Shown: piece after piece, positions 11,136 to 25,297 of the stretch
How the letters are laid out: the number at the start of each line of letters is the position of its first letter
Numbering within the stretch: the stretch's first letter is position 1
DNA from: Planctomycetota bacterium
GTDB lineage: Bacteria; Planctomycetota; Phycisphaerae; SM23-33
NCBI GenBank assembly: GCA_016235825.1
Contig: JACRIL010000152.1
Span: forward strand, 53,414 to 117,413
Direction: 5' to 3'
DNA: 64,000 bases
The notes under the pieces: generated by a model
Told to the model about the DNA's origin: nothing
The model's input: only the letters and a program-made list of their open reading frames with translations
The model's database searches: none
Program-made: the position numbers and the translations under genes

Positions 11136-11389
11136 GGACTTGACAGAGCATGGAAATCCTGGCATCCTTGCACTCGTGGACTTCCCCGGCAACCATGCCC
11201 GGGATCACACAAATGTTGGCATTCATGGCAGTCGCCCTGAAATTGTCCGGTCCGCCCGTTGCCGGCCCGGTCGAATAACCTGGCATAATCGACCGCCCGG
11301 CGGGATTGGCCGTATACTGAATGTTAGGGATGCGTTAGTATGAAGGCAAGGGAAAAATAGGACTTTTTTGATTTTACGAGGTGATTCTC

Positions 11390-12739
11390 ATGGCCAAACT
11401 GTGGGACAATATAAAGGCGCAGATTCGCTATCTGGCCGCACTCGACCCGGTGGATGGCCAGAAGATCGAGGAGTGGGGCAAGCTCTTGGCTGGCCAGCTC
11501 TACGCTAGGCGGGATAAATTCGACCTGCGGCAGGTTCTGGCCGAGACAGGCATTCGGGAACCTTGGGAAAGGCGGGCAATCGAAGCCGCCTACGGCCTGC
11601 TGATCGAGCGGGTCTGGAAGGACCAGAAGGTTACGGCGGGCGAGCGGTCGGCCCTGGATTGGTCGGCCAGGATGCTCAATCTGAGGCCGGATGACGCAGC
11701 CAGGCTGGAACTTCAGACCGGCTTGCAGGTCTTCGGAAAATGCCTGGCCGATGCGATGGACGGCGGCGAGATTGCTCCCGAGGATAAAATCCGGTTGTCG
11801 ATCATAGCCGGCGACCTGAACGCCTCTGTCCCGCTGCTTATGGGGCAATTCTTCGCCTCGCAGGGGGGGGCGTTTCTCCGCGGTATGTTCGTGAATTTCG
11901 CCGAGAATCATCAGTTTAACGATGCCGCTTTGGGCAAAGTCCTGGATGCCGTAGGATTTTTGGGGCTGGGCAAAAACGCCTTTCTGTCGGCCATCAGATT
12001 GCAGGCAATGCAGACCGCCGAGGAATATCTGGCCAGCGCCAAGGCCGACGAAAATCTCAGTCCCGAGGAGGAAAAGACGATCCTCTGGATGCTGGATAAC
12101 TTCGGTTTTGATGCCGAGCACCGTAAATATTTTGAGGATGAGATCGTGGATATGAAGTCCCTGATGGCCGTCAGGGACGGTAAATTGCCGACGATCAGCG
12201 CCCGGGATGTCGAACTGGATTCAGGCGAACTTGCCCATTATCAGGGACCGGCCTCATATATCGACGCGAAGCGGAAGAAGACCGGAGAGGGAAACGCCAA
12301 ACGCGGCAGGCTCACGATAACAGATTCCCGGATCATCTTCGCGTCAGTCGACGGCTCGCACCAGTTGAAACATTCCAAGGTTCTTGAAATCCAGAGCGAT
12401 CACAGCAACGCCTTCAAGGTCATGGCCTCCGGCAGAGGGGGCGGCATATATGTCCTGGACAGGGTGCCTCGGATGGCTGCCGCAATTTATACCTTTGCAG
12501 TCCGGCGCGTAAAACGGACTGCCCATGAAAAATACGAAGGCCTGCCTTCACGGCATATTTCGCGCGATGTCCGCCAGCGTGTTTTTCAGAGATATGGCGG
12601 CCGCTGTGCGGAGTGCGGGGCAAGCCAGTATCTTGAACACGATCACATAATCCCTGTGGAAAAGGGCGGCAGCAACAGCGACCAGAACGTTCAGCTTCTC
12701 TGCCGCAAGTGCAACCTCAAGAAACGTAATCTTATATAG
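11390..12739 (+). CDS. Multidomain HNH endonuclease (TerB-like helical repeats + bPH/GRAM-like domain + C-terminal HNH)
   Basis: C-terminus RYGGRCAECGASQYLEHDHIIPVEKGGSNSDQNVQLLCRKCNLKK = canonical HNH (H-N-H with CxxC...CxxC). Middle GRLTITDSRIIFASVDGSHQLKHSKVLEIQ resembles bacterial PH/GRAM. N-terminal DGEIAPEDKIRLSIIAGDL-type repeats resemble TerB. SD gaggtg 8 nt before ATG 11390. Confidence 0.6.
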   Translation: MAKLWDNIKAQIRYLAALDPVDGQKIEEWGKLLAGQLYARRDKFDLRQVLAETGIREPWERRAIEAAYGLLIERVWKDQKVTAGERSALDWSARMLNLRPDDAARLELQTGLQVFGKCLADAMDGGEIAPEDKIRLSIIAGDLNASVPLLMGQFFASQGGAFLRGMFVNFAENHQFNDAALGKVLDAVGFLGLGKNAFLSAIRLQAMQTAEEYLASAKADENLSPEEEKTILWMLDNFGFDAEHRKYFEDEIVDMKSLMAVRDGKLPTISARDVELDSGELAHYQGPASYIDAKRKKTGEGNAKRGRLTITDSRIIFASVDGSHQLKHSKVLEIQSDHSNAFKVMASGRGGGIYVLDRVPRMAAAIYTFAVRRVKRTAHEKYEGLPSRHISRDVRQRVFQRYGGRCAECGASQYLEHDHIIPVEKGGSNSDQNVQLLCRKCNLKKRNLI

Positions 12740-12750
12740 GAGATCCAAAC

Positions 12751-13449
12751 ATGAAAACGACGATCGTCGCTCTCGCGTGTCTATTTGTTGCCGCTCTGTC
12801 AGCCCTCGCCCAGACCAGCCGGCCGGCCTCGGCGCCGGCATCGCAACCAGCCTCAGGCCCGGCCGAAGATATTGCTATCCTTGTGCAGTGCGGGGAAAAG
12901 GCAAAACCCATCTTCGATAAAATAAGGGGGCATATAATTGACCATCTTAAAACGCTCAGTTCAAACCAACGTTTTTATATTATTCTCTGGGAAGGATGCA
13001 GAACTGACGATCCAAAATTTAAAGATCATTATCGAAGCCTTTTACTGGAAGGCCCCGAAAAAAACTTTGTTTCTGCCACGAAAGAGAACCTGGAGAAAAC
13101 TGAAAAACTGATGGTGGCAGATTTTCTGACACGATCCGGGGGCAATCCGTATCCGGCAGTAGATCGCGCCTTGGCTTTGCTTCGCACAAGCAAGGCATCG
13201 AAGCGGATTATTTTTATGGTCCACAATCTCGGTGATTTGGAAGTGGTTGACGATAATGCCGGGACTAAAGATAGTCATATCAAAATTCTTCCTAAAATAG
13301 CGACCCAAGCCAAGGCAGCAAGGATCAAGGTTGATTCAATCAGTTTTGAAGCAGTCAAGGATACTGAAGGTATTGCAACAGGATATTTAGAAAAAAATCT
13401 CTCCACGCCTACCGGCGGTACTGTTACAAAAATCGATATATCCAGATAG
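12751..13449 (+). CDS. Secreted protein with PAS-rich linker (possible vWA-like fold)
   Basis: Signal peptide MKTTIVALACLFVAALSALA followed by SRPASAPASQPASGPAE linker; lower-GC 3' half. Confidence 0.45.
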   Translation: MKTTIVALACLFVAALSALAQTSRPASAPASQPASGPAEDIAILVQCGEKAKPIFDKIRGHIIDHLKTLSSNQRFYIILWEGCRTDDPKFKDHYRSLLLEGPEKNFVSATKENLEKTEKLMVADFLTRSGGNPYPAVDRALALLRTSKASKRIIFMVHNLGDLEVVDDNAGTKDSHIKILPKIATQAKAARIKVDSISFEAVKDTEGIATGYLEKNLSTPTGGTVTKIDISR

Positions 13450-13455
13450 GCACTC

Positions 13456-13950
13456 ATGCCCCGCAGGCCCAGGCGACAGACAACCACGATGAATCTCATG
13501 CGTCCGCCGACGGCGACGGAGCGGTCGGCCAATCGCCGGGTCTGGAAGCGGATCGAGGAGATCGACGACGAATACGCCTTCAACCTTCAGATGGTCAAGG
13601 ACAGCCAGGACATGGTCCTGAAAAAGGCCTACGCGAAAAACTGCCTGAAGTTCCGGGCCGAATATCGCCGCCTTATGGCCGACCTGCTTCTGGACATGCT
13701 TCACCGCATGGAGCAAGCGGACAAGGCCCCACAGCCCAAGCCGAAGGCCCGGCGGCACACGGCGGCGGAGATCGAATACGAGGCCTGTGAGGTCGCCAAA
13801 CTGCGGAAGATTATCCCCGCGACGGAAGATCCGAAAGACCGCGAAAATTTTCAGGCCCGGATGGATTATCTGATGGGCGAATATGCTGGCGAGGAAAAGG
13901 CGAAGCTGATGGAATGGGTCAAGCGGTGGGAAGAGGGATCCAGGCCCTGA
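13456..13950 (+). CDS. Hypothetical protein
   Basis: 164-aa ORF, 6 nt after preceding gene, coding-like composition, no motif recognised. Confidence 0.35.
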   Translation: MPRRPRRQTTTMNLMRPPTATERSANRRVWKRIEEIDDEYAFNLQMVKDSQDMVLKKAYAKNCLKFRAEYRRLMADLLLDMLHRMEQADKAPQPKPKARRHTAAEIEYEACEVAKLRKIIPATEDPKDRENFQARMDYLMGEYAGEEKAKLMEWVKRWEEGSRP

Positions 13951-13971
13951 TAAAAAAGCCCCGCTGCTGAG

Positions 13972-14214
13972 TTATCTATCGAAAAATTCTTCCTTGGGAA
14001 TCTGGAATTTCCGTGAGATCATGGCCAAATGTGGAGCGCGAACCATAGCGCTGGAACTATTGCAGCATTTATGCTGAAGGCGCATGAAAAACATCCTGCC
14101 TTCAATTACTTTCTGGAGTTTTTTCTCCGCCCCCTTGCCTTGAAGAACATCAACGCCATGTTCCTTTAAAACCTCCATCACCCGATCCCATCTCTGGCAT
14201 CGGCGATGACTCAT
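13972..14214 (-). CDS. HicA/YcfA-like toxin homolog (possibly degenerate)
   Basis: 80 aa, 4-nt overlap downstream of a HicB-like gene; aligns to HicA core (..L..HG......G(S/A)..) but the conserved GSH His appears replaced (KGAEKK). Confidence 0.35.
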   Translation of the reverse strand: MSHRRCQRWDRVMEVLKEHGVDVLQGKGAEKKLQKVIEGRMFFMRLQHKCCNSSSAMVRAPHLAMISRKFQIPKEEFFDR

Positions 14215-14576
14215 GCGTTAACGCTTTCAAGTTCCTGAACGGTCTCGAAAGATGAACCCTTCGGCATTGGAGGGGGCCCCTTTTTCCTCTGAAGAAGTTT
14301 CTCGGCATCCCTGACAAACATCGGGTCTAATTTCTTGGCCCCTTCGGTTTTTTTCCAAAACTCCAGCGGGGCGAGCGAGATAACCTGTACCCGTGAATCC
14401 TTGGCCGCTTCTTCAAGCAGGCAGCGGATGGATGCCTTCAATTCAACTAAGGCCTCTACGACACAATCGCCCATGCCAATCTGATCGGTCGTAAGAGAAT
14501 GTGCGACCCACGCCTTGCCGACGGAATCTTCGCTTGGATAAATCACCCATATATCGCTATGCTTTGGTTGTGTCAT
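14211..14576 (-). CDS. HicB-like antitoxin (UPF0150 / RNase H-like fold)
   Basis: DIWVIYPSEDSVGKAWVAHSLTTDQIGMGDCVVEALVELKASIRCLLEEA matches HicB N-terminal pattern (EDGxxxAxxPDLPGxxTxGDTxEEALxNAKEAL). Confidence 0.5.
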   Translation of the reverse strand: MTQPKHSDIWVIYPSEDSVGKAWVAHSLTTDQIGMGDCVVEALVELKASIRCLLEEAAKDSRVQVISLAPLEFWKKTEGAKKLDPMFVRDAEKLLQRKKGPPPMPKGSSFETVQELESVNA

Positions 14577-14692
14577 TCGCCGTCTCCTTCACTTTCGGCC
14601 GCAATTGTCGCCTTTTCGCAGTGCCCGTCAAGGCAAATCGCCACCGCCCTACCTGAATTATATATCGCTACTATCGGCAAAACCATGACCTC

Positions 14693-15946
14693 TCACCCTA
14701 TTTTTTTCGCCGCCTCGATGGCCAGTGCCAGGTCAAGTTCGGCGTAGTGGTCTGCCATGCCCAGCGAGCGGTGGCCCAGGACGGCCCGGGCGACGTCCAG
14801 GCCCTTGCCCTTGAACTCCTGCCGCAGGCGTGTGGCGGCGGAATGTCGTAGCTGGTGCGGGTGCCAGTGGGGGACCTTCGCGGCCTTGCAGGCGTAGTCG
14901 ACGGCCCGGCCGTAGGATTGAGGCGTGTAGGCCTCGCCGGGCCGTTTCTTGGGCGATTCCTTGACGTTCGTGCCGGGTTCATTGCCCTGGCCGGCAGGCG
15001 TCTGGCGGCCTTCGTGCAAGGCCTTGCGGCGTTGTTTGTCGGCCTGGGCCGGAGAGAAGCAGAAGACGCCGGCGGGCCGGTCGAGATATTTGCGTAAAAT
15101 CTCCTGGGCCTTGGGGCCAAGCGCGATCGCACGTTTGTGGTCGTGATGCTCGGTCTTATGACTGCCGGGGCGGTATATCCAGATCGACTTTTTGCGGTCA
15201 ATGTCGCCGGGCTGCAAGGTAACCAGTTCGCCGGAGCGCATACCAGTCAACTGCTGAATTCGGACCATGTCGGCGACAATAGGCGACATGTGCGGCAGGG
15301 CGGCCTTGACATCTTTTTCCGGCACGGATTCCACAGGCTCGCTCTCCTTGACGCCGGGAACACCTTTGCGAAGTCCCTCTACGGCCAGCAGGCCATGCCA
15401 GACAGTGGCAGGCACAAGCTGTTCCCCGGCCGCCCAGCGGAACATCCGCCGGATGATATTTACCCTCTGATTGATGACTTTGCGGGCGAGTTGGGCAATA
15501 ATCATTTTGTGCCGGACCTCTTTGAGTTTCAGGGGGCCGAAGTCCGCGGCCTGCATTCCTGGGCAAAATTCCACAAGATGCTGAAGGGCATATCGGATAT
15601 TCGCAGCTTCACCTGTGGGCCGGCCGTCCGGCTTGCGATATCGCTGATCGGCATGGGCCAGAAAATTTTTAATCAGACAGGCAAGGCTGCCATCCCACTT
15701 CCCCGGCTCAAAAATTTTCCCGCCGATCTCCGCCTTGAGCACCAGATTGCGGTACAAGTCCCTGGCGACTGCCTCGGCCACGGCCCGGTCCTTCGTGGCC
15801 CATCGCGCCCCCTCAGGCACAAGCGGTCGGGATATATATCTTTCATCCCCAGGCAGTTTTACCCGCCAGTGATAACGGCCGTGATTGAGATAAATGGATC
15901 CCGGAATTTTGTCGCTTTTTGCTGCTGGCTTGGCGGTATTTGTCAT
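14693..15946 (-). CDS. Tyrosine-type site-specific integrase
   Basis: 417 aa; C-terminal catalytic residues HQLRHSAATRL ... LGHRSLGMADHYA (R..HxxR..Y); gene ends 74 nt from tRNA-Ala 3' end. Confidence 0.75.
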   Translation of the reverse strand: MTNTAKPAAKSDKIPGSIYLNHGRYHWRVKLPGDERYISRPLVPEGARWATKDRAVAEAVARDLYRNLVLKAEIGGKIFEPGKWDGSLACLIKNFLAHADQRYRKPDGRPTGEAANIRYALQHLVEFCPGMQAADFGPLKLKEVRHKMIIAQLARKVINQRVNIIRRMFRWAAGEQLVPATVWHGLLAVEGLRKGVPGVKESEPVESVPEKDVKAALPHMSPIVADMVRIQQLTGMRSGELVTLQPGDIDRKKSIWIYRPGSHKTEHHDHKRAIALGPKAQEILRKYLDRPAGVFCFSPAQADKQRRKALHEGRQTPAGQGNEPGTNVKESPKKRPGEAYTPQSYGRAVDYACKAAKVPHWHPHQLRHSAATRLRQEFKGKGLDVARAVLGHRSLGMADHYAELDLALAIEAAKKIG

Positions 15947-16019
15947 AAAACTATCGTAACATATTTACCGCCAAAGTCAAGCCCCTGATATTATTCAATA
16001 TTTACAGCCTTAAACTGAT

Positions 16020-16092
16020 TGGAGACACGGGGGATCGAACCCCGAACCTCTAGCTTGCAAAGCTAGCGCTCTCCCAATTGAGCTATGTCCCC
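16020..16092 (-). tRNA. tRNA-Ala (anticodon UGC)
   Basis: Reverse complement GGGGACATAGCTCAATTGGGAGAGCGCTAGCTTTGCAAGCTAGAGGTTCGGGGTTCGATCCCCCGTGTCTCCA: cloverleaf with G3:U70 Ala identity pair, anticodon loop TT-TGC-AA, TTCGATC T-loop. No encoded CCA. Confidence 0.85.
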
Positions 16093-16132
16093 TCTCGTGC
16101 ACGCAACCTTAAAAGTTGTTCCGCCGGCAAAA

Positions 16133-16206
16133 TGGGCCTGGACCGATTCGAACGGTCGACCTTGCCCTTATCAGGGGCACGCTCTAACCAACTGAGCTAC
16201 AAGCCC
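16133..16206 (-). tRNA. tRNA-Ile (anticodon GAU)
   Basis: Reverse complement GGGCTTGTAGCTCAGTTGGTTAGAGCGTGCCCCTGATAAGGGCAAGGTCGACCGTTCGAATCGGTCCAGGCCCA: near-identical to canonical bacterial tRNA-Ile(GAT); anticodon loop CT-GAT-AA. Confidence 0.85.
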
Positions 16207-16330
16207 GGCCTCAGGATGGCTGGCGCCACCTGTCAAAACGGATTTTACCTGGAAATTTCCCGTCCTTCAAGTATTTTGCCGGCCAATTCAACCTGCCATG
16301 CAACGGCATATCCGCCCATTCCGTCTGGTA

Positions 16331-16454
16331 ATGGGTCAGTTACAGGGGGAGACTAACTTTCGCCATCTTGTGGTGCGGGCGTCTCGCCTGCATTTTTTAT
16401 TCTTAGAGTTGCAGGCAGGATGCCTGCACCACAATCCCCCTGTAACTGACCCAT
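16331..16454. other. Structured inverted-repeat element (possible small regulatory RNA / DNA cruciform) between tRNA genes and glycosidase genes
   Basis: Perfect 20-nt inverted repeat atgggtcagttacaggggga (16331-16350) / tccccctgtaactgacccat (16435-16454), extended by ttgtggtgc (16368-16376) / gcaccacaa (16426-16434); inner palindrome tgcaggca-gga-tgcctgca (16410-16428) and a T-run (16393-16399). Confidence 0.3.
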
Positions 16455-16513: not shown

Positions 16514-18841
16514 ATGCTCAATCTTGTTCCTTGTCCGATGCAAGTACGCCAGATGCCCGGAAGTTTCCTGCTGTCGGCGAAAGCCGCCCGGCTGGGTTCG
16601 TGGCCAGCGCCCGGCATTACGGAATCGGTGCGGCACAAACTGAAGTCCCTGGGTTTTTCCATCATCCGCGACGCAAGCCTGCCGGAACTTACCGTCATTT
16701 TCGGCTCGCCGTCGCTGAAAAACCCCGATCCGCCGTCCAGGCCGGAAGGTTACGCGCTTCATTGCGACCGGAATGGCGTTGCGGTTCGAGGCCGCGACGC
16801 GGACGGGCTTTTCTGGGGCCTCGTTACGCTCGAACAGCTTCTTGACGGCGGGCGCCGCGTGCCGTGCGTCGAAATCCATGACGCCCCGGCGTATCCCTTC
16901 CGGAAGCACGTAGACGACATCTCCCGCAGGCAGATTTCCCGGCTCGATGATTTCATGGAGATCATCCGCCGGCTGTCGTACTACAAGATCCGGTACTATT
17001 GCCCGTATATGGAGGACGTTCTTTACATAAGAAGTTTTCCCGAGATCGGCCAAGGCCGCGGGCGGCTCACGCCGGCCGAATTACGAACCATGCACGCCGA
17101 GGCGCGCAGGCACAACATTACCATCCTGCCGAAATATTCGCTGCTGGGCCACCAGGAGAACCTGCTGAGCCACCGGAAGTTCCGCAAGTATGCCCGCGAG
17201 GTTTTCCAGTTTCCTTCGGCATATGACGTGCGTAAGCCCATCCTCCGCCCGTATCTCCGCAAGGTCATACGGGACGTCTGCGGGCTTTTCCCGGACTCGC
17301 CATATTTTAACGCCCAGTTTGACGAGGTGATCGGGCTTACCGAGAAGGAATTCATGGCCCACGCCCTGTGGTGCGCCAAAGAGCTTGCCCGATACGGCAA
17401 GCGGATGATGATGGCTGCGGACATGTTCAAGAACCATTACGGCCTGAAAAAGATCCGGCGCCTGACCGGCGGCATTGTTACCAATGAATGGAACTACGGC
17501 GATCCTCGCAATGTGGAAAAGGCTTATCTCAAGCTGAAGTTGGCGCCGCTCGGACAGGCCGGCTACTGCAACTGGTGCGCGTTTCTGCCTTCATTCGTCA
17601 ACGCCAAGCGCAACATCGACCTGTGGACCGGCGTGATGCGCCGCTGGGGCGGGCCGGGCTTCGGCTCCTCGCAGTGGGGCGACGGCGGATACGAGAACCA
17701 CCGCGACCTCTGCTGGAACCTCTTTGCCTATTATGGCGAAGCGGTCTGGACCGGCCGGGCCGTGCAAAAAGACTTCGAGAGCCGCTTCCAGGCCACGTTT
17801 TACGGCGCGCCGCTGCCGGGCCTTAAAAAGATTGTTGAAGAAATTGCGCCGGCCCGGAAAATCGCCCCTGCGCAATCGTGGAAACTTTTCCGCATGCCCT
17901 GGAACGGGCTGGTGCGGTTCGCGGCCGTGAAAAAGGACTCGCTGAAAGACGCCCGGACCGATCTGGCCGCGATCCGCAAAGGCCTGGCCCTGCTGAAAAC
18001 CTGCCGGCCGAAACGAAATGCCGCGCACCTGGAGCATTTTCGAGTGGCGCTGGAGCGCGAGCGCCACGTGCGCGAGCGGCTTTTGCTGGCCGGCCGCGCC
18101 GCCGCCGGACTTGCGGGGCCGGCTCTTGCCAGGGCCGCCCGCAAAATGCTGGGCGACCTGCGGGCTGTTCGCAAAATGTACGAGCGGGACTGGCTGAGAA
18201 ACAACAAACGTCCCAACATCGAGGTCTCCCTGAAAGTATTCGACGATTTCGCCGATTCGATGCGTCAGGCCATGACCTCGTGCAGCCGACAGTCCGGCAG
18301 GTATCGTTGTCTGGACCTCGGCGGATTTTACAATACATATATTCCCGACGTCGGCGGCGTGCCGATCGGACCGGGGATGGTAAACGGCGTGCCGTTCCGG
18401 TTTGCGGGCCTGCATCATTCGCACGCCGACCTGACGCACGACAAGCCGCTGTGCCTGCAATTCAAGGCCTGCAAAGTCAGCGACATACATATAATCTGCG
18501 GCGGCCAGAGAATCGCGGCCGATCTCAAAAAAATCGGACCCATGGCCGAGATTGCCCTGTACCACAAAGGCAAAATCGTGTTTTCTGAAAAGCTGCTTTC
18601 CATACGGCATATATGTGACTGGTGGGCGCCGCTGGGCGAGCATATATGGGCCGGCGGCGGATTTCTGCACGTGGACCGCAAACGCGTATCTTACGCCCTC
18701 AAGCCCGGGCAGATGCACGGGCTGACGCACCTGTCCAGATTCAAGGTCGTTGGCAGACGGGCCGACGCCCTCCGCATCCGCCTTATTGATAAAGGCCCCC
18801 AGGCTATCGGCCTGTTCGCGGCGACGATAGAAACCGTTTAA
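16514..18841 (+). CDS. Glycoside hydrolase, GH20-like (beta-N-acetylhexosaminidase-like) TIM-barrel enzyme, paralog 1
   Basis: 775 aa; N-terminal LNLVPCPMQVRQMPGSF matches GH20b-domain start (IP-P-x...G-F); HDAPAYPFRKHVDDISRRQ...YKIRYYCPYMED aligns to GH20 DxPRFxYRGxMLDxSRHF...LNxxHWHLTDD; candidate acid pair in FNAQFDEVIG. Family assignment tentative. Confidence 0.45.
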   Translation: MLNLVPCPMQVRQMPGSFLLSAKAARLGSWPAPGITESVRHKLKSLGFSIIRDASLPELTVIFGSPSLKNPDPPSRPEGYALHCDRNGVAVRGRDADGLFWGLVTLEQLLDGGRRVPCVEIHDAPAYPFRKHVDDISRRQISRLDDFMEIIRRLSYYKIRYYCPYMEDVLYIRSFPEIGQGRGRLTPAELRTMHAEARRHNITILPKYSLLGHQENLLSHRKFRKYAREVFQFPSAYDVRKPILRPYLRKVIRDVCGLFPDSPYFNAQFDEVIGLTEKEFMAHALWCAKELARYGKRMMMAADMFKNHYGLKKIRRLTGGIVTNEWNYGDPRNVEKAYLKLKLAPLGQAGYCNWCAFLPSFVNAKRNIDLWTGVMRRWGGPGFGSSQWGDGGYENHRDLCWNLFAYYGEAVWTGRAVQKDFESRFQATFYGAPLPGLKKIVEEIAPARKIAPAQSWKLFRMPWNGLVRFAAVKKDSLKDARTDLAAIRKGLALLKTCRPKRNAAHLEHFRVALERERHVRERLLLAGRAAAGLAGPALARAARKMLGDLRAVRKMYERDWLRNNKRPNIEVSLKVFDDFADSMRQAMTSCSRQSGRYRCLDLGGFYNTYIPDVGGVPIGPGMVNGVPFRFAGLHHSHADLTHDKPLCLQFKACKVSDIHIICGGQRIAADLKKIGPMAEIALYHKGKIVFSEKLLSIRHICDWWAPLGEHIWAGGGFLHVDRKRVSYALKPGQMHGLTHLSRFKVVGRRADALRIRLIDKGPQAIGLFAATIETV

Positions 18842-18871
18842 AATCTGAAGCACGTTCTTCCGGAGACAAAC

Positions 18872-21199
18872 ATGCTAAATCTTGTTCCGATGCCGACGCA
18901 AGTACGCCAGATGTCCGGCAGCTTTCTGCTGTCAGTAAAAACTGTCCGCATGGGTCGTCAGCGGCCGGTCGGCGTTACGGAACCTGTCCGGCACAAACTG
19001 AAGACCCTGGGCTTTTCCATCATCCGCGACGACAGCCTGCCGGAGCTGACAGCCGTTTTCAGCTCGCCGTCGCTGAAGAGCCTCAATCCTCCGGCCAAAG
19101 CGGAAGGTTACGCGCTTTGCTGCGACCGGAATGGCGTTGCGGTCCGAGGCCGCGACGCGGACGGGTTATTCTGGGGCCTCGTTACGCTCGAACAGCTTCT
19201 TAACGGCGGCCGCCGCGTGCCGTGCGTCGAGATTCGCGACGCCCCGGCGTATCCCTACCGGGTGCACATGGACGACATCTCCCGCAAGCAGATTTCCACG
19301 CTCGGAGATTTCAGGGAGATCGTCCGCCGGCTGTCGTATTACAAGATCCGTTATTACTGCCCGTACATCGAGGACGTTCTTTATATAAAAAGTTTTCCCG
19401 AGATCGGCGCCGGCCGCGGCCGGCTGACCCCGCCGGAAGTGCGGGCCATGCGCGCCGAGGCCAGGCGACACAATGTGATCATCCTTCCTGACTATTCCCT
19501 GTTGGGCCACCAGGAGAACCTTCTTGCCCGCCCGAAGTTCAGCAAGTACGCCCGCGAGGTTTTCCAGCTTCCTTCCGCCTACGACGTGCGCAAGCCGATC
19601 CTTCGCCCGTATCTCCGCAAGGTCATCCGCGACGTCTGCGAGCTTTTCCCGGACTCGCCCATTTTCTGCGCCGCCTTTGACGAGGTGATCGGGCTTACGG
19701 AAAAAGAATTCATGGGGCACGCCTTGTGGTGCTCCAAAGAACTCGCACGGTACGGCAAGCGGATGATGGTCTGCATGGACATGTTCAAGAACCACTACGG
19801 CCTGCATAAGATCCGCCGTCTGGGTTCCGATGTAATTCCGCTGGAATGGGGCTACGGCGACCCTCGCAAGGTGGAAAAGGCCTATCTCAAACTGAAGATG
19901 GCGCCGTTCGGCCTGTCGGGGTATAATAACTGGTGCATGTTCCTGCCGACGTTCACTGACGGCAAGCACAACATCGACCTGTGGACCGGCGTGATGCGCC
20001 GCTGGGGCGGCCCGGGTTTCGGCGCCTCGCAGTGGGGCGACAGCGGTTACGAAAACCATCGCGACCTTTGCTGGAACCTCTTTGCCTATTATGGCGAAGC
20101 GGTCTGGACCGGCCGGGCCGTCGGCAAAAATTTTGAAAGCAGATTTCAGACCACGTTCTACGGCCGGCCGCTGCCGGGTCTTAAAAAGATCGTGGAAGAT
20201 ATCGCTCCGGCGCGGAAAATCGCCCCGGTGCAGTCGTGGAAGCTCTTCCGGATGCCATGGAACGGGCTGGTGCGTTTGGCGGCCGTGAGAAAGAACTCGC
20301 TGAAAGACGCCCGGACCGACCTGACCGCGATCCGCAAAGGCCTGGCCCTGCTGAAAATCTGCCGGCCCAAACGAAATGCCGCGCACCTGGAGCATTTTCG
20401 AGTGGCGCTGGAGCGCGAGCGCCACGTGCGCGAGCGGCTTCTGCTGGCCGGCCGCGCCGCCGCCGGACTTGCGGGGCCGGCTCTTGCCGGGGCCTTCCGC
20501 AAAACGCTGGCCGACCTGAAGGCCGTCCGCAAAATGTACATCCGCGACTGGCTGCGAAACAACAAACGCCCCAACATTGAGTTCTCGCTGGATGTTTGCG
20601 ACGAAGTCGCCGATTCCATGCGGCAGGCCGTGTCGCCCGCCAAGGCGCCGTCGGGCAAATATCTCTGCCTCGATCTGGGCAAGCGATACGACGCCTATGT
20701 TCCCGACGTCGGCGGCGTGCCGATCGGACCGGGAACAATGAACAACCTGCCGTTCCGGTTTGCGGGTCTGCACCACTCGCACGCCGATCTGACGCACGAC
20801 AAGCCGGTCGATCTGCGGTTCACGCCGTGCAGAATACGCGACCTGCACATCATCTGCGGCGGGCAATACATCGTGCGGGACCTCAAGAAGATATCTCCCC
20901 TCGTCGAGGTCGTCCTCTCGCGCAAGGGCAGGATCGTGTTTTCCGAGAAACTGCTTTCTATACGGCACATCTGCGACTGGTGGGCGCCGCTGGGCGAGCA
21001 TATGTGGTCCGGCGGCGGATATCGCCACGTGGACCGCAAACGCGTATCCTACGCCCTCAAGCCCGGCCACATGCACGGGCTGACGCACCTGTCCGGGTTC
21101 AACATCCGCGGCGTGGAGGCCGACGCACTTTCCCTGCGGCTGCCGGGCAATGCCAAAGAGACCGTCGGTCTGTTCGCGATCACCGCGCAGATCGTTTAG
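18872..21199 (+). CDS. Glycoside hydrolase, GH20-like, paralog 2 (tandem duplicate of 16514-18841)
   Basis: 775 aa, collinear and ~80% identical by eye to paralog 1 over the full length; 30-nt spacer between copies. Confidence 0.45.
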   Translation: MLNLVPMPTQVRQMSGSFLLSVKTVRMGRQRPVGVTEPVRHKLKTLGFSIIRDDSLPELTAVFSSPSLKSLNPPAKAEGYALCCDRNGVAVRGRDADGLFWGLVTLEQLLNGGRRVPCVEIRDAPAYPYRVHMDDISRKQISTLGDFREIVRRLSYYKIRYYCPYIEDVLYIKSFPEIGAGRGRLTPPEVRAMRAEARRHNVIILPDYSLLGHQENLLARPKFSKYAREVFQLPSAYDVRKPILRPYLRKVIRDVCELFPDSPIFCAAFDEVIGLTEKEFMGHALWCSKELARYGKRMMVCMDMFKNHYGLHKIRRLGSDVIPLEWGYGDPRKVEKAYLKLKMAPFGLSGYNNWCMFLPTFTDGKHNIDLWTGVMRRWGGPGFGASQWGDSGYENHRDLCWNLFAYYGEAVWTGRAVGKNFESRFQTTFYGRPLPGLKKIVEDIAPARKIAPVQSWKLFRMPWNGLVRLAAVRKNSLKDARTDLTAIRKGLALLKICRPKRNAAHLEHFRVALERERHVRERLLLAGRAAAGLAGPALAGAFRKTLADLKAVRKMYIRDWLRNNKRPNIEFSLDVCDEVADSMRQAVSPAKAPSGKYLCLDLGKRYDAYVPDVGGVPIGPGTMNNLPFRFAGLHHSHADLTHDKPVDLRFTPCRIRDLHIICGGQYIVRDLKKISPLVEVVLSRKGRIVFSEKLLSIRHICDWWAPLGEHMWSGGGYRHVDRKRVSYALKPGHMHGLTHLSGFNIRGVEADALSLRLPGNAKETVGLFAITAQIV

Positions 21200-21225
21200 C
21201 ATAGGGTTGTGTGTGCTGTTCCGCG

Positions 21226-22185
21226 TCAATTGCCGAACATGGTGCGGTATTTCATGAGCGCCAGGCAGATGGCCTCGATATTCTCCAGAGGCACGCCGTC
21301 GTCGACCTCGGCGGTCAGCCACAGGCCGCCCGCCGGACTGCCCATCGCTTCGACACATTCGCGAACGTGGCGATCAATCTCATCGGGCGCGGCGAACGGA
21401 AACAACTGCCTGTCCAGGTCCAGGTCGATGCACACCTTCCCCTTGCAGACTCCGACAAGGTTGTCCAGGCCGTTGGCCCGAATCTGCGGATTGACCACGT
21501 TGACCCCGCAGTCGGCCAGGTCCGGGATGATCTCGTAAATGTGGCCGTCGGTGTGCATATAGACGCATGCGCCGGCCTTGCGGCACCGGCCGTAGATCGC
21601 CGCGAAGCATGGTTTGAGGTATTTACGCCACTTGGCGGGACTGATCGGCAGACTGTTCTGAATGCCCAGATCGTCGCCGAAGTGCATCATATCGTCGCCC
21701 TTTAGCCCGGCAATCGCCAGATCGACCTGCCTGAGGTTGTACTCCAGCACCACGTCGATCAGTTTCTGAAGTTCCGGCGGCTCCTCGGCAAAATCGACCA
21801 TTATTTCCTCAAAGCCCCGCAGGTCCGCCAGCCGGAGGTACATGAAACCGTGCGGCAGGCCCGCGTCTTTTGTGGGCATCCGGAGTTTCCATACATCTTG
21901 GCGATTCGGCAGCGGATGCATCTTCACGATGGCCTCGTGGCCGTGGTAGACGTTGCTCCAGACGCAGCCCCATGCGTCCGTGTGGTCGCCCGCGGCATAC
22001 GTCTGGCTCCACAACTTGTCATAGTCGGTCTTGCCGGCCGGCAGCAATTCGGAATATCGTCCGGCGATCGCGCTGAGCTGGTCGCGGTACTTCATCCACG
22101 CCGCCGGCAGCACGCCCAGCCGCACAGGAATCATTTTTGGCCGGTCGAACTTCATGGCGCGAATCTGGTCATCCGACATCTTCAT
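21226..22185 (-). CDS. Uroporphyrinogen decarboxylase (URO-D) family protein (UroD/MtaA-like)
   Basis: 319 aa; HTDGHIYEIIPDLADCGVNVVNP and overall layout typical of URO-D-fold proteins frequently found beside glycosidases in PVC bacteria. Confidence 0.6.
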   Translation of the reverse strand: MKMSDDQIRAMKFDRPKMIPVRLGVLPAAWMKYRDQLSAIAGRYSELLPAGKTDYDKLWSQTYAAGDHTDAWGCVWSNVYHGHEAIVKMHPLPNRQDVWKLRMPTKDAGLPHGFMYLRLADLRGFEEIMVDFAEEPPELQKLIDVVLEYNLRQVDLAIAGLKGDDMMHFGDDLGIQNSLPISPAKWRKYLKPCFAAIYGRCRKAGACVYMHTDGHIYEIIPDLADCGVNVVNPQIRANGLDNLVGVCKGKVCIDLDLDRQLFPFAAPDEIDRHVRECVEAMGSPAGGLWLTAEVDDGVPLENIEAICLALMKYRTMFGN

Positions 22186-22407: not shown

Positions 22408-22584
22408 TCAAATGAAGACCGAAGATATGCTGTTTCCAGGAGCAATTCTCGCAAGAAACGCTTGCAGAGTTTTAGACGCAAGAGATAATGGAAGAAATCT
22501 TCTGTACCACAAGACTGTTTGGATCTGTTATTGTGCGAAGAAACTTATGAAACCGGAAATACCGTGCAATCAGGAGGTTCGACA

Positions 22585-23253
22585 ATGGACCGTTCAAACA
22601 TAGAATCGCAATTGGTGGAGTATTTACGCAAAGCCGGCAGAGATTTCATTCTCCTGTCGAAACTTAAACAGTCGTTACAAAAAGCTATCAGCAACAAGGA
22701 CGCAGTCGCACAGATAGAGAAGAATAATCGGCTGTCCATAATTAAAAAGGGGAAATCTACATATCTGGCTTTTCGGCAGCCTCCGGAGGTATTCGTGTTC
22801 ACTGCTATACAAAAGAAACCAGGACAATCCCCCGGGCAGATCGCGAAATCGACACCTTTGAAAATCCCCGACTTCATCGGGGCGATTAATGTTCTGATCG
22901 CGCGAGGCGATGTGCGTTGTGAAATTAATTCCAAATCATCCAAATATGACATCAAACTGCATCCGAGCAAGCCCAGCGGCAGTGGCAGCGAGGCGAGAGA
23001 AGACCGCGACTTATTCGCCAAAGCGGTCCGGGAACTGGACCGGGGGCAAATCTATATCCGCATCCATGCCGTCCGTGACCGCCTCGGCTGGACGCGCGAA
23101 CGATTTGACAGGATGATCGAGACGCTCCGCGACGAAGGCGTGATACAGTTGCACGCCGGCGACATTACCACGATGTCGAAGGAAGAGGTTGAAAAGAGCT
23201 TCGTCGATGAAAATAACTTCTTTTTTGCCACGCTCACGTGGAGAAAACCATGA
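22585..23253 (+). CDS. Triple winged-helix (wHTH) DNA-binding protein, first gene of low-GC three-gene island
   Basis: 222 aa from ATG 22585 preceded by strong SD caggagg (22571-22577); three wH-like segments (IESQLVEYLRKAGRDFILLSKL; PGQIAKSTPLKIPDFIGAINVLIARGDVRCEI; IRIHAVRDRLGWTRERFDRMIETLRDEGVIQLH). GC ~45% vs ~65% flanks. Confidence 0.5.
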   Translation: MDRSNIESQLVEYLRKAGRDFILLSKLKQSLQKAISNKDAVAQIEKNNRLSIIKKGKSTYLAFRQPPEVFVFTAIQKKPGQSPGQIAKSTPLKIPDFIGAINVLIARGDVRCEINSKSSKYDIKLHPSKPSGSGSEAREDRDLFAKAVRELDRGQIYIRIHAVRDRLGWTRERFDRMIETLRDEGVIQLHAGDITTMSKEEVEKSFVDENNFFFATLTWRKP

Positions 23254-25283
23254 CAACGCCGCAAGAACTCCTTAAGTCGAACAATCCTTTCTATTCGAAC
23301 CGCGTCGGCAATCCATGGGATGACCCCTATCCCGACGTGGAATCCATAAATCATAATGCCTTCGACGGCATTCTCCGTTTGCTCGGTTACAAGACCAAGA
23401 ACCCGAAGGACGCCTGCGCGGGTCTCGTTCTTGGCGAGACCGGTACAGGAAAAACGCATCTCTTGAAGCGGATTCTTCACGCGAGCCGCCGCACGGAGAC
23501 GCCAGCCGTCTTTACTTACGTCCGTCCCATCCTCGATACCACAGCACCGATGCGATACCTGCTCCGCGAGATCGTGATAAACCTTGGCAAAGAGAACGAT
23601 GAAGCACAAAAACGGACTCAACTCGACCTATTCGCGGCGCGAATCCTTATCGATTTCCTCCGCAACGACCAGGACCCAAATCGAAACGCCAAACTATTAA
23701 AGAAACTGGATGAGGATCCTTTCTACATATATCAGGCCAAGATTGATCCGAAGATTATGGAGGAGGCGGAGAAGCGGGCAATTCGGTATCTCCGGCGCAT
23801 CAGTCCAGACATAAGTTCTGATCTGCTGCGAGTGATTGTAAAATACCGCAAAAAGGAGATGCGCGACCTGGTGGTCTGCTGGATGCGAGGCGATGTTATC
23901 GACGGCGAGGAGGAAGCAAACCATCTCGGTACCACAACACGTGTGGACAAGGATATTGGCACTCTAGAACAAGAGGCTAAAGGTTTGATCCTGAGTCTTG
24001 GACAACTGATGGCCCGTTACGGCCGTCCGATGCTCGTCTGTTTCGATCAGCTAGACAACCTGTATGAACCGAGCGCCGTTCGCGCCCTTGAAGCCATGAT
24101 TAACATTCTGGTCCGCGAGGCGCAGGCTATGCTACCTCTTGCCTTTGTCCGGGCGGATTCTTGGAATGAACGTTTTAAAAAAACGATGGATATAGCCGTA
24201 GTTGAATGTCTGGAAGCCAATCGTTTTCTCTTGGAAAGCTGCTCGATGGAGCAGGCCGAGGAACTCGTACGTCGCCGCGTCCAAGCGTTTCTTGGTTCCC
24301 AGACCGAAATGGTGTTCCCTTGGCTGTGGGGACAACTCAAAGATCAAATCAAAAATGGTTATTTCCCAGGCCAAGTGATCGTCCTCGCCAAGCGGACCAT
24401 CGAATCTGAAGGAGAAGAAGGCATTCTCCGCAAATTGGAGGAAACGTACCACAATGAGTGCGAGGCGGTTCTCGCCGATCTCGCGTCCTGGTCTCCGGAT
24501 GGCGACCGACTTGCTTTGGCGCTGGAGACCTACCTGCAAGCGAGTCCCGACATCAAAGGATTGCGCAAGGGCAAAGAAAAGCATGTCTCTTTTGTATTCG
24601 AGGCTCCCGGTGAAAAAGGGAAGGACATCCCGCATATCGCCATTGTCAATGTCGGAGGCGGGTATCATCGCATCGGCAACTGCCTCAAAACGGGAATCGA
24701 ATTCCTTCAAAAATATCCCGAAGGGCAAGGGCGATGTTTCTACATCTCAGATGCTCGCAACTCCATCCCAATTCCTCCTCGGTGGAAAGCCACAAATGAG
24801 TTGCGCCAGACGTTCGAGACCATGGGCGGAATCATGCTTATCCTGGACAAGGATGCAGTCGCGCGATGGTACGCGATCACCTCGCTCGTTTTCAAGGTGA
24901 ACGAGGGTGACATACAGGTCGAGGAAGGTTCCGGGAAACTCAGGGCGGCAACCCGCGAGGAACTGAACCAGATGTTACGGGAAGGCATTTCAAAAGGTTC
25001 GTTCCCTTCCTTGCTGACGGCGGTTAAAGGTCCGGAGACGGCCAAGCCGCAGCCGGAAACGCCGAAGCGGCAGGATGAGACGCGGATGATGGCGTCGGTC
25101 AAGAGTTGTCTCAAGGACAGCCCCATGCGGATGTTGACGATCTCCGTTCTTCTCGGCAAGCTTATACAAAACAAGGTGAAGCTGGATCATGCCGGGCTTC
25201 TCGCATTTTTGGGACAGCATAAGAATATTTTCCGTTTGTTCGAGAACAAGCAGGGCATGACGGTTATGCTCGACCAAACTTGA
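23250..25283 (+). CDS. P-loop NTPase (AAA+/STAND- or Orc/Cdc6-like Walker A GxxGTGKT) with C-terminal wH-like domain
   Basis: Walker A LVLGETGTGKTHLLKRIL, Walker B-like RPMLVCFDQLDNL; ATG 23250 overlaps stop TGA of upstream gene (ATGA) indicating translational coupling; C-terminal LTISVLLGKLIQNKVKLDHAGLLAFLG wH-like. Confidence 0.6.
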   Translation: MTTPQELLKSNNPFYSNRVGNPWDDPYPDVESINHNAFDGILRLLGYKTKNPKDACAGLVLGETGTGKTHLLKRILHASRRTETPAVFTYVRPILDTTAPMRYLLREIVINLGKENDEAQKRTQLDLFAARILIDFLRNDQDPNRNAKLLKKLDEDPFYIYQAKIDPKIMEEAEKRAIRYLRRISPDISSDLLRVIVKYRKKEMRDLVVCWMRGDVIDGEEEANHLGTTTRVDKDIGTLEQEAKGLILSLGQLMARYGRPMLVCFDQLDNLYEPSAVRALEAMINILVREAQAMLPLAFVRADSWNERFKKTMDIAVVECLEANRFLLESCSMEQAEELVRRRVQAFLGSQTEMVFPWLWGQLKDQIKNGYFPGQVIVLAKRTIESEGEEGILRKLEETYHNECEAVLADLASWSPDGDRLALALETYLQASPDIKGLRKGKEKHVSFVFEAPGEKGKDIPHIAIVNVGGGYHRIGNCLKTGIEFLQKYPEGQGRCFYISDARNSIPIPPRWKATNELRQTFETMGGIMLILDKDAVARWYAITSLVFKVNEGDIQVEEGSGKLRAATREELNQMLREGISKGSFPSLLTAVKGPETAKPQPETPKRQDETRMMASVKSCLKDSPMRMLTISVLLGKLIQNKVKLDHAGLLAFLGQHKNIFRLFENKQGMTVMLDQT

Positions 25284-25297
25284 CAGGACATGTTACC

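Follow-up and report, generated by a model that had tools for sequence, protein, structure and literature searches.

Tandem and dispersed paralogs of a divergent GH20 clade, without a pocket-wall tryptophan, in a Planctomycetota bacterium

Two adjacent genes in the window (the whole 64,000-nt stretch of DNA that was analysed) encode paralogs that, judged by profile searches and a modelled fold, are genuine, very divergent GH20 glycosidases of a rare and distant clade. A third paralog (P0003, MBI5725080.1), ~77% identical, is found on another contig of the same genome. We consider it likely that these tandem and dispersed copies descend from a protein that had lost a pocket tryptophan early, that they have been kept under purifying selection with partial gene conversion, and that they act as retaining exo-beta-N-acetylhexosaminidases.

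The tandem pair

16514-18841, plus strand: copy 1 gene, 775 aa, ATG start, from the ORF list (HZA50_11860; 100% match to P0001)
18842-18871, plus strand: spacer between the copies, exactly 30 nt in the sequence, in which a Shine-Dalgarno-like GGAG precedes the copy-2 ATG by 6 nt
18872-21199, plus strand: copy 2 gene, 775-aa paralog, ATG start, from the ORF list (HZA50_11865, MBI5724648.1)

The pair is a head-to-tail, whole-gene repeat on one strand, collinear without gaps across 775 codons. Both lengths and the spacer are as given by an earlier sequence-only reading, which had seen two collinear 775-aa ORFs separated by 30 nt. The repeat finder recovers a direct repeat in three segments with a constant period of 2358 nt, and homology runs from ~3 nt before each ATG to each stop codon. 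The proteins share 607/775 identities (78%, where ~80% had been estimated), with 86% positives and 0 gaps (BLASTP), and the genes are 81.5% identical over 2328 nt without indels. DNA identity by codon position (84.9%, 88.0% and 71.7%) follows the pattern expected of a real coding frame under purifying selection. High GC content accounts for the long antisense ORFs (e.g. 19166-21358, minus strand, 730 aa); they are artefacts, with no conservation from one copy to the other. No terminator-like hairpin was found between the copies in a terminator scan, so they are probably co-transcribed.

In GenBank these proteins are labelled "hypothetical protein". The NCBI start of HZA50_11860 is 13 codons too short, as the N-terminal motif MLNLVPxP of copy 1 is conserved in the alignment and is common to the whole family.

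The source is a metagenome-assembled genome, in which two strain variants might have been joined wrongly in tandem. However, this is extremely unlikely here. The sequence-only reading had named near-identity of the copies as the mark of an artefact, and the nucleotide divergence found is 18.5%, with a dS of 0.48, far beyond strain variation. In addition, a ribosome-binding site of its own lies in the 30-nt junction, which is unique, the equally distant third paralog is on another contig, and the GC content (60-61%) is the same as the genome background.

Membership in GH20

An AF2 model (pLDDT 91.8, pTM 0.92) was searched against the PDB, and the top 21 Foldseek matches are all GH20 (GcnA, GH20C), with TM 0.68-0.72 and rmsd 3.7-5.4 A over ~600 columns; the best are GcnA (2epo) and GH20C (5a6b), with E down to 1.6e-24. 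The family profile matches GH20 chains (4pys E = 4.7e-24, 4c7d 7e-21, 1hp4 1e-20), reaching through beta4/beta5, and a beta5-beta8 sub-profile matches dispersin, GcnA and GH20C at E = 3e-6 to 5e-3. The catalytic domain PF00728 is not found in either window protein even at E <= 1. It is detected in 28/31 aligned family members (best E = 2.2e-10), the exceptions being the three paralogs of this genome. The NCBIfam GlcNAcase model scores 32 bits against a cut-off of 1000, at the GH20b/barrel junction only. The tentative GH20-like assignment of the sequence-only reading is upheld by the profile and Foldseek matches (TM 0.70) and by PF02838 in both copies, and its "divergent subfamily" is a fair description of proteins that do not reach PF00728 singly.

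The subfamily is small: in a set of 1.8 billion representative proteins it makes up ~40 clusters at 50% identity. Its members all come from metagenome-assembled genomes, of Planctomycetota, Lentisphaeria, Verrucomicrobiota, Sumerlaeota, Fibrobacterota and Armatimonadota. A literature search found nothing specific on the clade or on GH20 duplications in Planctomycetes.

A GH20b domain also occurs in GH84 (PMC4449183), and the proteins could conceivably belong to that family, or to an undescribed GH family sharing the GH20b domain and a TIM barrel. The GH84 O-GlcNAcases (BT_4395, NagJ) resemble the clade in having an N-terminal GH20b-type domain and a TIM barrel with substrate-assisted catalysis, GH84 chains appear in both the sequence and the fold match lists, and PF00728 has no match in the window proteins. 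However, the sequence matches to GH84 are confined to the GH20b domain (about residues 5-135), and the fold match is much weaker (TM 0.42-0.50 and rmsd 11-15 A, against TM 0.70 and 4-5 A for GH20). The catalytic pair of GH84 is Asp-Asp, while the proteins of the tandem pair carry Asp-Glu, as in GH20. With PF00728 present in 28/31 relatives, and WGD and MWxDMF motifs as in GcnA and GH20C, a placement outside GH20 is very improbable. GH138 also matches the model much worse than GH20 (Foldseek TM ~0.45, rmsd above 11 A).

Domain architecture

Copy 1 16520-16885, copy 2 18878-19243, plus strand: GH20b (zincin-like) N-terminal domain, residues 3-124 (Pfam PF02838)
Copy 1 16889-17767, copy 2 19247-20125, plus strand: (beta/alpha)8 catalytic barrel, residues ~126-418 (AF2 secondary structure, profile-to-PDB, Foldseek)
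Copy 1 17768-18283, copy 2 20126-20641, plus strand: helical domain III, residues ~419-590 (AF2 helices 421-587, Foldseek)
Copy 1 18284-18838, copy 2 20642-21196, plus strand: C-terminal beta-jelly-roll, residues ~591-775 (AF2 domain model, pLDDT 91)

PF02838 is matched over its full length (3-124/124) and above the gathering score in both copies (E = 1.3e-15 in copy 1, 2.9e-17 in copy 2), and is present in 31/31 family members, none of which has an N-terminal extension before it. Its place ahead of the catalytic domain corresponds to the Model A architecture of GH20. No signal peptide was found in the copies, so they are most likely cytoplasmic; a signal peptide is absent from GcnA, GH20C and the clade alike.

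The best fold match of the clade is to GcnA of Streptococcus gordonii (2epk/2epo) and GH20C of S. pneumoniae (SP_2141, 5a69/5a6b), although sequence identity to these is only 14-16%. Shared with them are the order GH20b, TIM barrel, helical domain III, the Asp-Glu pair, the motifs 'MWxDMF' and 'WGDxGxE', and an Asp, not Glu, at the position of SpHex E444 (PMC4449183). Unlike GcnA and GH20C, the clade has an additional C-terminal jelly-roll of ~185 residues, and in the window paralogs the Trp of 'MWxDMF' is missing. With SpHex (1hp4), ScHex (4c7d) and the Bacteroides fragilis enzyme 4pys, the profile match runs from the GH20b domain to beta5, and beta5 to beta8 of the clade are too diverged for direct HMM alignment. 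The clade can be aligned with these enzymes at the Arg, the His, the Asp-Glu pair and the column of Trp344. However, in these enzymes a long loop 2 provides the remote element in cis, position 444 is Glu, not Asp, and neither domain III nor a jelly-roll is present.

The C-terminal jelly-roll is specific to the clade. It is found in just 44 clusters of 1.84 billion, always in the architecture of the GH20 clade, and has no Pfam match. Its loop ICDWWAPLGEHxWxGGG (residues 700-716, nt 18611-18661 in copy 1) is near-invariant. A known CBM or Pfam domain was considered and rejected, as CBM matches in Foldseek are marginal (CBM32/CBM51-type beta-sandwiches, TM ~0.3, E 1e-3 to 1e-2) and other architectures are never seen. 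AziU2/AziU3 (PDB 8gs1, 7wuw) are similar in their jelly-roll/beta-sandwich fold (Foldseek E = 4e-6, TM 0.56-0.59), and identity to these and to the CBM beta-sandwiches is ~15%. No counterpart of the signature loop CDWWAPLGEHMWAGGG was identified among these nearest solved folds (AziU2/AziU3, CBM32/CBM51-type), and on the modelled structure the nearest folds justify no functional inference.

Catalytic pair and -1 subsite

Copy 1 17321-17326, copy 2 19679-19684, plus strand: catalytic Asp270-Glu271 ('FDE'), aligned to ScHex D301-E302 = SpHex D313-E314
Copy 1 17414-17416, copy 2 19772-19774, plus strand: codon 301, GCT (Ala) in copy 1 and TGC (Cys) in copy 2; the family Trp here = SpHex Trp344 of the pocket wall

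The sequence-only reading had taken the catalytic segment to depart from the GH20 pattern, with 'FDEV' rather than 'GGDE', and with 'YYCPYMED' as a second departure. Neither departure holds at the catalytic residues. D270-E271 fall exactly on the catalytic Asp-Glu that follows beta4 in GH20, and do not vary in the family alignment. Both copies have the pair, as do 76/78 other members, and 'YYCPYMED' aligns to 'HLHISDD' with the acidic pair kept. Structure prediction, which had been proposed for locating the pair, returned the GH20 fold in the AF2 model, with D270-E271 as the pair by alignment.

The -1 subsite of SpHex consists of R162, W344, W361, Y393, W442 and E444 (PMC8098473). Among the mapped -1 subsite residues, R130, W326, Y351, W388 and D390 are found in both copies, and at least 72 of the 78 other members keep the catalytic and subsite residues. 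In the mapping to GcnA, 'MW301VDMF' corresponds to 'MWSDMF', 'VEW326' to 'VYW' and 'W388-G-D390' to 'WGD'. The Trp of column 301 maps to ScHex W332. Tyr351 is equated with SpHex Tyr393 by strand topology alone, the HMM alignment to GcnA being ambiguous there.

From this mapping, the copies would be retaining exo-beta-N-acetylhexosaminidases working by substrate-assisted catalysis, in which Asp270 would orient and polarise the 2-acetamido group of the substrate, Glu271 would serve as general acid/base, and Arg130, His213, Trp326, Tyr351, Trp388 and Asp390 would form the -1 subsite. GH20 enzymes act as beta-N-acetylhexosaminidases, lacto-N-biosidases or sulfoglycosidases, with retention by way of an oxazolinium intermediate. 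Loop 2 of the clade (G179-T186) is short, with 8 residues as in GcnA (8) against 15 in SpHex, so a remote element probably completes the pocket; a dimer partner or the invariant C-terminal loop could supply it. GcnA has Asp376, its loop 2 is short, and the dimer partner supplies the remote element (PMC4449183). In the GcnA homodimer the C-terminus of the partner completes the site. However, as the clade has ~185 extra residues after domain III, the dimer arrangement of GcnA cannot be identical here.

Loss of the pocket-wall tryptophan

Column 301 is W in 72 and Y in 4 of the 78 other members, and A/C/A in the three paralogs. Two further columns are altered: 285, N in 74/78 others and L/L/M in the three paralogs, and 133, H in 64/78 others and V/M/V in the three. 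As the Trp is absent from all three paralogs and the position is aromatic in 76/78 others, its loss suggests a specificity shift older than the duplications. The pocket-wall Trp would thus have been lost ahead of the family's expansion in this lineage, and His133 and Asn285 would have changed with it; together the changes at Trp301, His133 and Asn285 would probably have altered the -1 pocket around the N-acyl group. Duplication of a 2358-nt unit would have followed, with dispersal of a further copy, after which all copies would have stayed under purifying selection at equal rates and the tandem pair would have been partly homogenised by gene conversion in domain III. With one of three canonical pocket Trp residues missing, the proteins may use a substrate other than HexNAc, or may have little activity.

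A stronger reading is that the three paralogs are no longer plain beta-N-acetylhexosaminidases, their -1 pocket having opened for another substrate, such as a bulkier or modified N-acyl group or a substituted HexNAc, or for disaccharide release. We treat this as possible and rather unlikely. It accords with the replacement of W301 in the trio only, with the changes at N285 and H133, with the trio being the only 3/31 members that give no PF00728 signal, and with continuing purifying selection, by which the altered site would be maintained. However, the remaining mapped catalytic and subsite residues are intact, and single Trp substitutions in GH20 pockets may alter kinetics only.

Age, selection and gene conversion

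The sequence-only reading had proposed an old tandem duplication maintained under selection, with a pairwise alignment and dN/dS as the check. The alignment gives 78% protein identity, dS is 0.48 and dN 0.14, and the dN/dS of 0.30 indicates purifying selection, in agreement with the proposal; in sliding windows dN/dS ranges over 0.16-0.51. The decay of redundant copies, as dosage duplicates or as pseudoenzymes that lost catalysis after the Trp, is very unlikely. A conserved active-site Trp and the Pfam catalytic-domain signal have indeed gone. However, each of the three ORFs is intact over its full length, dN/dS stands at 0.30 with a dS of ~0.5, D270-E271 remain along with the other subsite residues, and just 14/167 of the strongly conserved family columns are altered.

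The same reading had also inferred sub- or neofunctionalisation between the copies, which did not find support. The three paralogs are star-like with equal rates (relative-rate tests across the three, at the protein level only), so a sequence signal of neofunctionalisation between the copies is absent. Lineage-specific changes are balanced between the two copies, 60 against 65 (Tajima test p = 0.65), and asymmetric evolution as a signature of neofunctionalisation is rejected. The mapped catalytic and -1 subsite residues are the same in both copies, bar position 301 (Ala/Cys).

Divergence is spread along the whole gene, as had been read from the proteins, with the exception of one homogenised tract:

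Copy 1 17894-18133, copy 2 20252-20491, plus strand: probable gene-conversion tract, gene nt 1381-1620, 95.4% identity against 81.5% overall

The tract (permutation p = 0.001) includes stretches of 72 and 47 nt without a difference, and its local dS is 0.137. It lies within helical domain III, and this pattern of identity makes gene conversion the probable cause. Most unique changes in domain III belong to the third paralog.

The position of the tract bears on the idea that the tandem paralogs form a HexA-like heterodimer with properties of neither homodimer, the domain III tract keeping the interface compatible. GcnA, HexA, HexB and OfHex1 are dimers in which loop 2 is short and the partner contributes a remote element, and in GcnA much of the interface is built from domain III (PMC4449183). 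A short loop 2 and a domain III are features of the clade as well, the spacer is 30 nt without a terminator, and the conversion tract is inside domain III. However, in tandem repeats a conversion tract is to be expected somewhere by chance, the third paralog is not linked to the pair, and the family member is single-copy in 27/27 related genomic loci, so that homomers must work in the family. We regard the heterodimer as distinctly unlikely. The human HexA/HexB pair, a GH20 duplication whose dimeric products have a short loop 2 and take the remote element from the partner (PMC4449183), is a conceptual model only; it forms homo- and heterodimers, and is unrelated to the tandem pair in lineage, architecture and gene arrangement. 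The fullest version, in which a remodelled acetamido pocket confers a new specificity in a HexA-like heterodimer with a conversion-matched domain III, and the invariant C-terminal loop completes the active site, is quite improbable. The reading that we favour remains that of a family of purifying-selected paralogs, altered in the pocket before they were duplicated.

Gene neighbourhood

21226-22185, minus strand: UroD-family gene (HZA50_11870), convergent neighbour (Pfam PF01208, E = 5.7e-10)

The UroD-family gene adjoins the tandem pair and is not part of a system with it. It had been described as a frequent companion of such glycosidases in PVC genomes; the related loci do not support this, and the gene is convergent with the pair. 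No UroD-like gene is present in 27 related loci (tblastn) or in 4 annotated loci carrying a family member (0/31 in all), and a glycosidase of the GH20 clade is found in 0/3 UroD-homolog loci. The ~770-aa unannotated genes beside the UroD homologs in L032 and L033 were considered; they are related neither to the GH20 clade nor to one another.

No conserved operon is seen around family members on pre-annotated contigs, which were used because antisense ORFs in high-GC DNA confound de novo ORF clustering of the 27 loci. Gene neighbourhoods are not conserved, and give no clue to the substrate. GH20C is encoded in an N-glycan processing locus (PMC5215778); unlike GH20C, the clade has no conserved gene context. 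For an upstream integrase island, a repeat of tRNA-Ala of at least 14 nt, as an att site, was looked for and none was found.

Significance

The pair is an ordinary enzyme-gene duplication, a routine expansion of CAZyme paralogs in a bacterium of the PVC group, and opens no new biological question. What is notable about it is the missing active-site tryptophan and the end domain found only in this clade, and nothing else. The analysis gives a firm label to proteins listed in GenBank as hypothetical, and defines a small uncharacterised GH20 subfamily with a distinctive fourth domain. The natural replacement of Trp by Ala or Cys in the acetamido pocket, maintained under selection in three paralogs, is a ready-made experiment on tuning of the -1 subsite, and may interest enzymologists concerned with hexosaminidases that accept modified N-acyl groups.

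Structure of the tandem pair and related records

The two glycosidase genes are ATG-initiated ORFs of 775 codons each, separated by a 30-nt spacer (AATCTGAAGCACGTTCTTCCGGAGACAAAC):

16514-18841, + strand, copy 1
18872-21199, + strand, copy 2

The proteins align without gaps and are identical at 607 of 775 positions (78%), and the DNA is 81.5% identical (84.9%, 88.0% and 71.7% at codon positions 1, 2 and 3), with a constant repeat period of 2358 nt. Similarity runs from about 3 nt 5' of each ATG to each stop codon, and the flanks are unrelated. The tandem paralogs are thus exactly as described in the sequence-only reading. The long opposite-strand ORFs of one copy are not conserved in the other; they result from the 60% GC content. 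Copy 2 has a GGAG motif 6 nt ahead of its ATG, and a scan found no terminator-like hairpin in the spacer or just past copy 2; the two genes are likely co-transcribed.

In GenBank the copies are HZA50_11860 and HZA50_11865 (MBI5724648.1), on a 118-kb contig of a metagenome-assembled "Planctomycetes bacterium" genome. The HZA50_11860 (copy 1) product has 762 aa and starts at Met14. The family-conserved N-terminus MLNLVPxP lies 13 codons upstream (16514-16552), and the GenBank start appears to be mis-called. A third paralog, HZA50_14055 (MBI5725080.1, 785 aa), is found on a separate 34-kb contig and shares 77% identity with copy 1 and with copy 2. Beyond this trio, the best match among 5.8 billion proteins reaches just 53% identity.

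Membership in GH20 and domain architecture

Taken singly, the window proteins pass a sole Pfam model, PF02838 (GH20b; residues 3-124, E = 1e-15 and 3e-17), and PF00728 (GH20 catalytic) is undetected in them even at E <= 1. In phmmer searches of the PDB they give weak GH20 matches (4c7d, E = 8.5e-7), with 'YCPYMED' aligned over 'HLHISDD' and 'QFDE' over 'GGDE'. A profile of 31 family members, trio included, matches solved GH20 enzymes strongly (4pys, E = 4.7e-24; 4c7d, 7e-21; 1hp4, 1e-20), which settles the GH20 question. PF00728 is matched individually by 28 of the 31; only the trio goes undetected. The best PDB matches of an AlphaFold2 model of copy 1 (pLDDT 91.8, pTM 0.92) are the GH20 enzymes GcnA of S. 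gordonii and GH20C of S. pneumoniae (E ~1e-24, target-normalised TM 0.70, ~600 aligned columns), followed by other GH20 enzymes; GH84 and GH138 match far more poorly (TM ~0.45, rmsd > 11 A). It is highly probable that the pair belongs to GH20, and the earlier GH20-like assignment is upheld by the profile, Pfam and fold matches together. Four domains are seen, the last three delimited in the AlphaFold2 model:

residues 3-124, domain 1, GH20b
residues ~126-418, domain 2, (beta/alpha)8 barrel
residues ~419-590, domain 3, helical bundle corresponding to GcnA/GH20C domain III
residues ~591-775, domain 4, beta-jelly-roll

None of the 31 aligned members has an N-terminal extension ahead of GH20b, suggesting that the family proteins are cytoplasmic. 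GH20C, which belongs to the pneumococcal locus for N-glycan processing (PMC5215778), is cytoplasmic too.

Active site

The -1 subsite of SpHex consists of R162, D313, E314, W344, W361, Y393, D395, W442 and E444 (PMC8098473). In a profile alignment to ScHex, D270-E271 (copy 1 numbering) fall over ScHex D301-E302, equivalent to SpHex D313-E314, with R130 over the conserved Arg and H213 over the conserved His. The family Trp at column 301 falls over ScHex W332, 30 residues past the catalytic Glu, which is the SpHex W344 position. The beta5-beta8 sub-profile places 'MW301VDMF', 'VEW326' and 'W388-G-D390-x-G-x-E' over 'MWSDMF', 'VYW' and 'WGDNGGE' of GcnA/GH20C. Mapped active-site residues are invariant in the 31-member alignment, and of 78 additional full-length relatives at least 72 retain them. 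'FDEV', previously taken as a departure from GGDE, is therefore simply the catalytic D-E pair preceded by Phe. In GcnA, Asp376 replaces E444, loop 2 is short (G136-T143) and a remote element is supplied by the dimer partner (PMC4449183); the family likewise has Asp at that position (D390), and its own short loop, G179-T186, is 8 residues long. The pair most probably encodes intracellular exo-beta-N-acetylhexosaminidases, in which D270-E271 would act in substrate-assisted catalysis; we regard this full mechanistic statement as probable.

The C-terminal jelly-roll

A fold search with a separate model of the C-terminal domain (pLDDT 91) found no close solved relative; the best matches are AziU2/U3 (E = 4e-6, TM 0.56-0.59), then marginally CBM32, CBM51 and CBM86. 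Searched by profile across 1.84 billion representative proteins, the domain turns up in only 44 clusters, without exception as the C-terminal part of ~775-800-aa proteins or in fragments from the C-terminal end. This distribution marks it as a clade-specific module rather than a promiscuous carbohydrate-binding one. Conservation of its loop ICDWWAPLGEHxWxGGG (residues 700-716) equals that of the catalytic core. Given the short loop 2, and the need for a remote element in GH20 enzymes with such a loop 2 (PMC4449183), it is proposed that loop 700-716, or a dimer partner, would complete the pocket.

Gene neighbourhood

Next to the pair, and convergent with it, is a UroD-family gene:

21226-22185, - strand, UroD-family protein, 319 aa

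PF01208 covers just the C-terminal half of this protein. Its family is very large and highly conserved (>2,900 homologs at 60-79% identity) and is spread through Phycisphaerae and Lentisphaeria in variable gene contexts. The protein is unlikely to be a haem-pathway UroD. UroD had been proposed as a frequent companion of such glycosidases. At 27 family-member loci in GTDB genomes, all metagenome-assembled (Planctomycetota, with Brocadiia and Phycisphaerae among them; Lentisphaeria; Sumerlaeota; Fibrobacterota; Verrucomicrobiota; Armatimonadota), no UroD-like gene occurs within 8 kb and the family gene is nowhere duplicated in tandem. Nor is UroD present at four annotated metagenomic family loci, where the carbohydrate-catabolism neighbours vary (GFO/IDH/MocA oxidoreductases, AP_endonuc_2, sulfatase, heparinase II/III-like, GH127, Asparaginase_2). 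Conversely, GH20-clade glycosidases are absent from the neighbourhoods of UroD-like homologs in three long contigs. The companionship is not borne out, and the adjacency in the window is best read as incidental. A heparinase II/III-like protein (PF07940) is encoded at 27382-29295 (-), and locus L031 has a similar gene close to its family member; such neighbours might faintly point to a substrate context of glycosaminoglycan type, but the pattern is inconsistent across loci.

The window also has two low-GC islands. The first, 10400-16210 (53.5% against a ~60% background), has its integrase directly beside two tRNA genes:

10488-11135, HTH/RmrA-like regulator
11381-12739, HNH-endonuclease protein
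14693-15946, - strand, tyrosine integrase
16020-16092, tRNA-Ala(TGC)
16133-16206, tRNA-Ile(GAT)

The island resembles a tRNA-targeted integrative element; a search upstream found no att repeat of the tRNA of at least 14 nt. In the gap between the tRNAs and copy 1, a strong terminator-like hairpin (16372-16394, +; 10-bp stem, then a T-run) has no obvious + strand gene upstream and may be a bidirectional terminator, or an insulator for the tRNA/integrase region. The second island, 22519-27310 (53.9%), directly beyond the UroD-like gene, carries three overlapping genes:

+ strand, gene 1, 244 aa, function not assigned
+ strand, gene 2, 681-aa AAA/NACHT-like ATPase
+ strand, gene 3, 676 aa, Cas4-like PD-(D/E)XK nuclease plus FtsK/SspH-C-terminal-like ATPase

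Gene 3 matches PADLOC SspH (E = 5.5e-58, residues 368-670). The island is a candidate defence module that fits no complete known system.

Evolution of the paralogs

Nei-Gojobori estimates between the copies give dS 0.476, dN 0.143 and dN/dS 0.30 (0.16-0.51 in sliding windows of 100 codons), in keeping with the earlier view of an old duplication under selection. Codons 451-550 have dS of only 0.137, and identity reaches 95.4% over gene nt 1381-1620, inside helical domain III, where the copies share unbroken matches of 72 and 47 nt (longest-run permutation p = 0.001); this is a probable gene-conversion tract. Consistent with conversion between the tandem copies, the third paralog has 28 unique substitutions in domain III, against 5 and 10 in the copies. 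Overall the trio is star-like (60, 65 and 73 unique changes), and copies 1 and 2 are equal in rate (Tajima chi-square 0.2, p = 0.65); each differs from the family majority at 80-82 positions. These figures are thus clear evidence for long-term retention under constraint; they hold no sequence sign of an asymmetric neofunctionalisation of one copy.

Among 167 conserved columns (each at least 89% conserved in members other than the trio), one or more of the paralogs deviate at only 14, and changes common to all three are concentrated in the barrel. Column 301 is Ala/Cys/Ala in the trio (W in 72 and Y in 4 of the 78 others), column 285 Leu/Leu/Met (N in 74/78), column 133 Val/Met/Val (H in 64/78) and column 324 Asn/Leu/Phe (V in the family). 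Codon 301 is GCT in copy 1 and TGC in copy 2, within ATGATGATGGCTGCGGAC (17405-17422) and ATGATGGTCTGCATGGAC (19763-19780), respectively, a difference that looks like two compensating 2-nt indels. This local frame-shifted patch sits exactly at the lost active-site Trp. Loss of the pocket-wall Trp therefore came before or during the expansion and has persisted under selection, and we infer a pocket remodelled around the N-acyl group.

The pair arose by a genuine, ancient tandem duplication of a deeply divergent GcnA/GH20C-type GH20 gene, within a three-member expansion. The duplication itself is not unusual; some interest lies at the level of the clade, with its exclusive fourth domain, and of this lineage, with a selected loss of the canonical pocket Trp in the trio.
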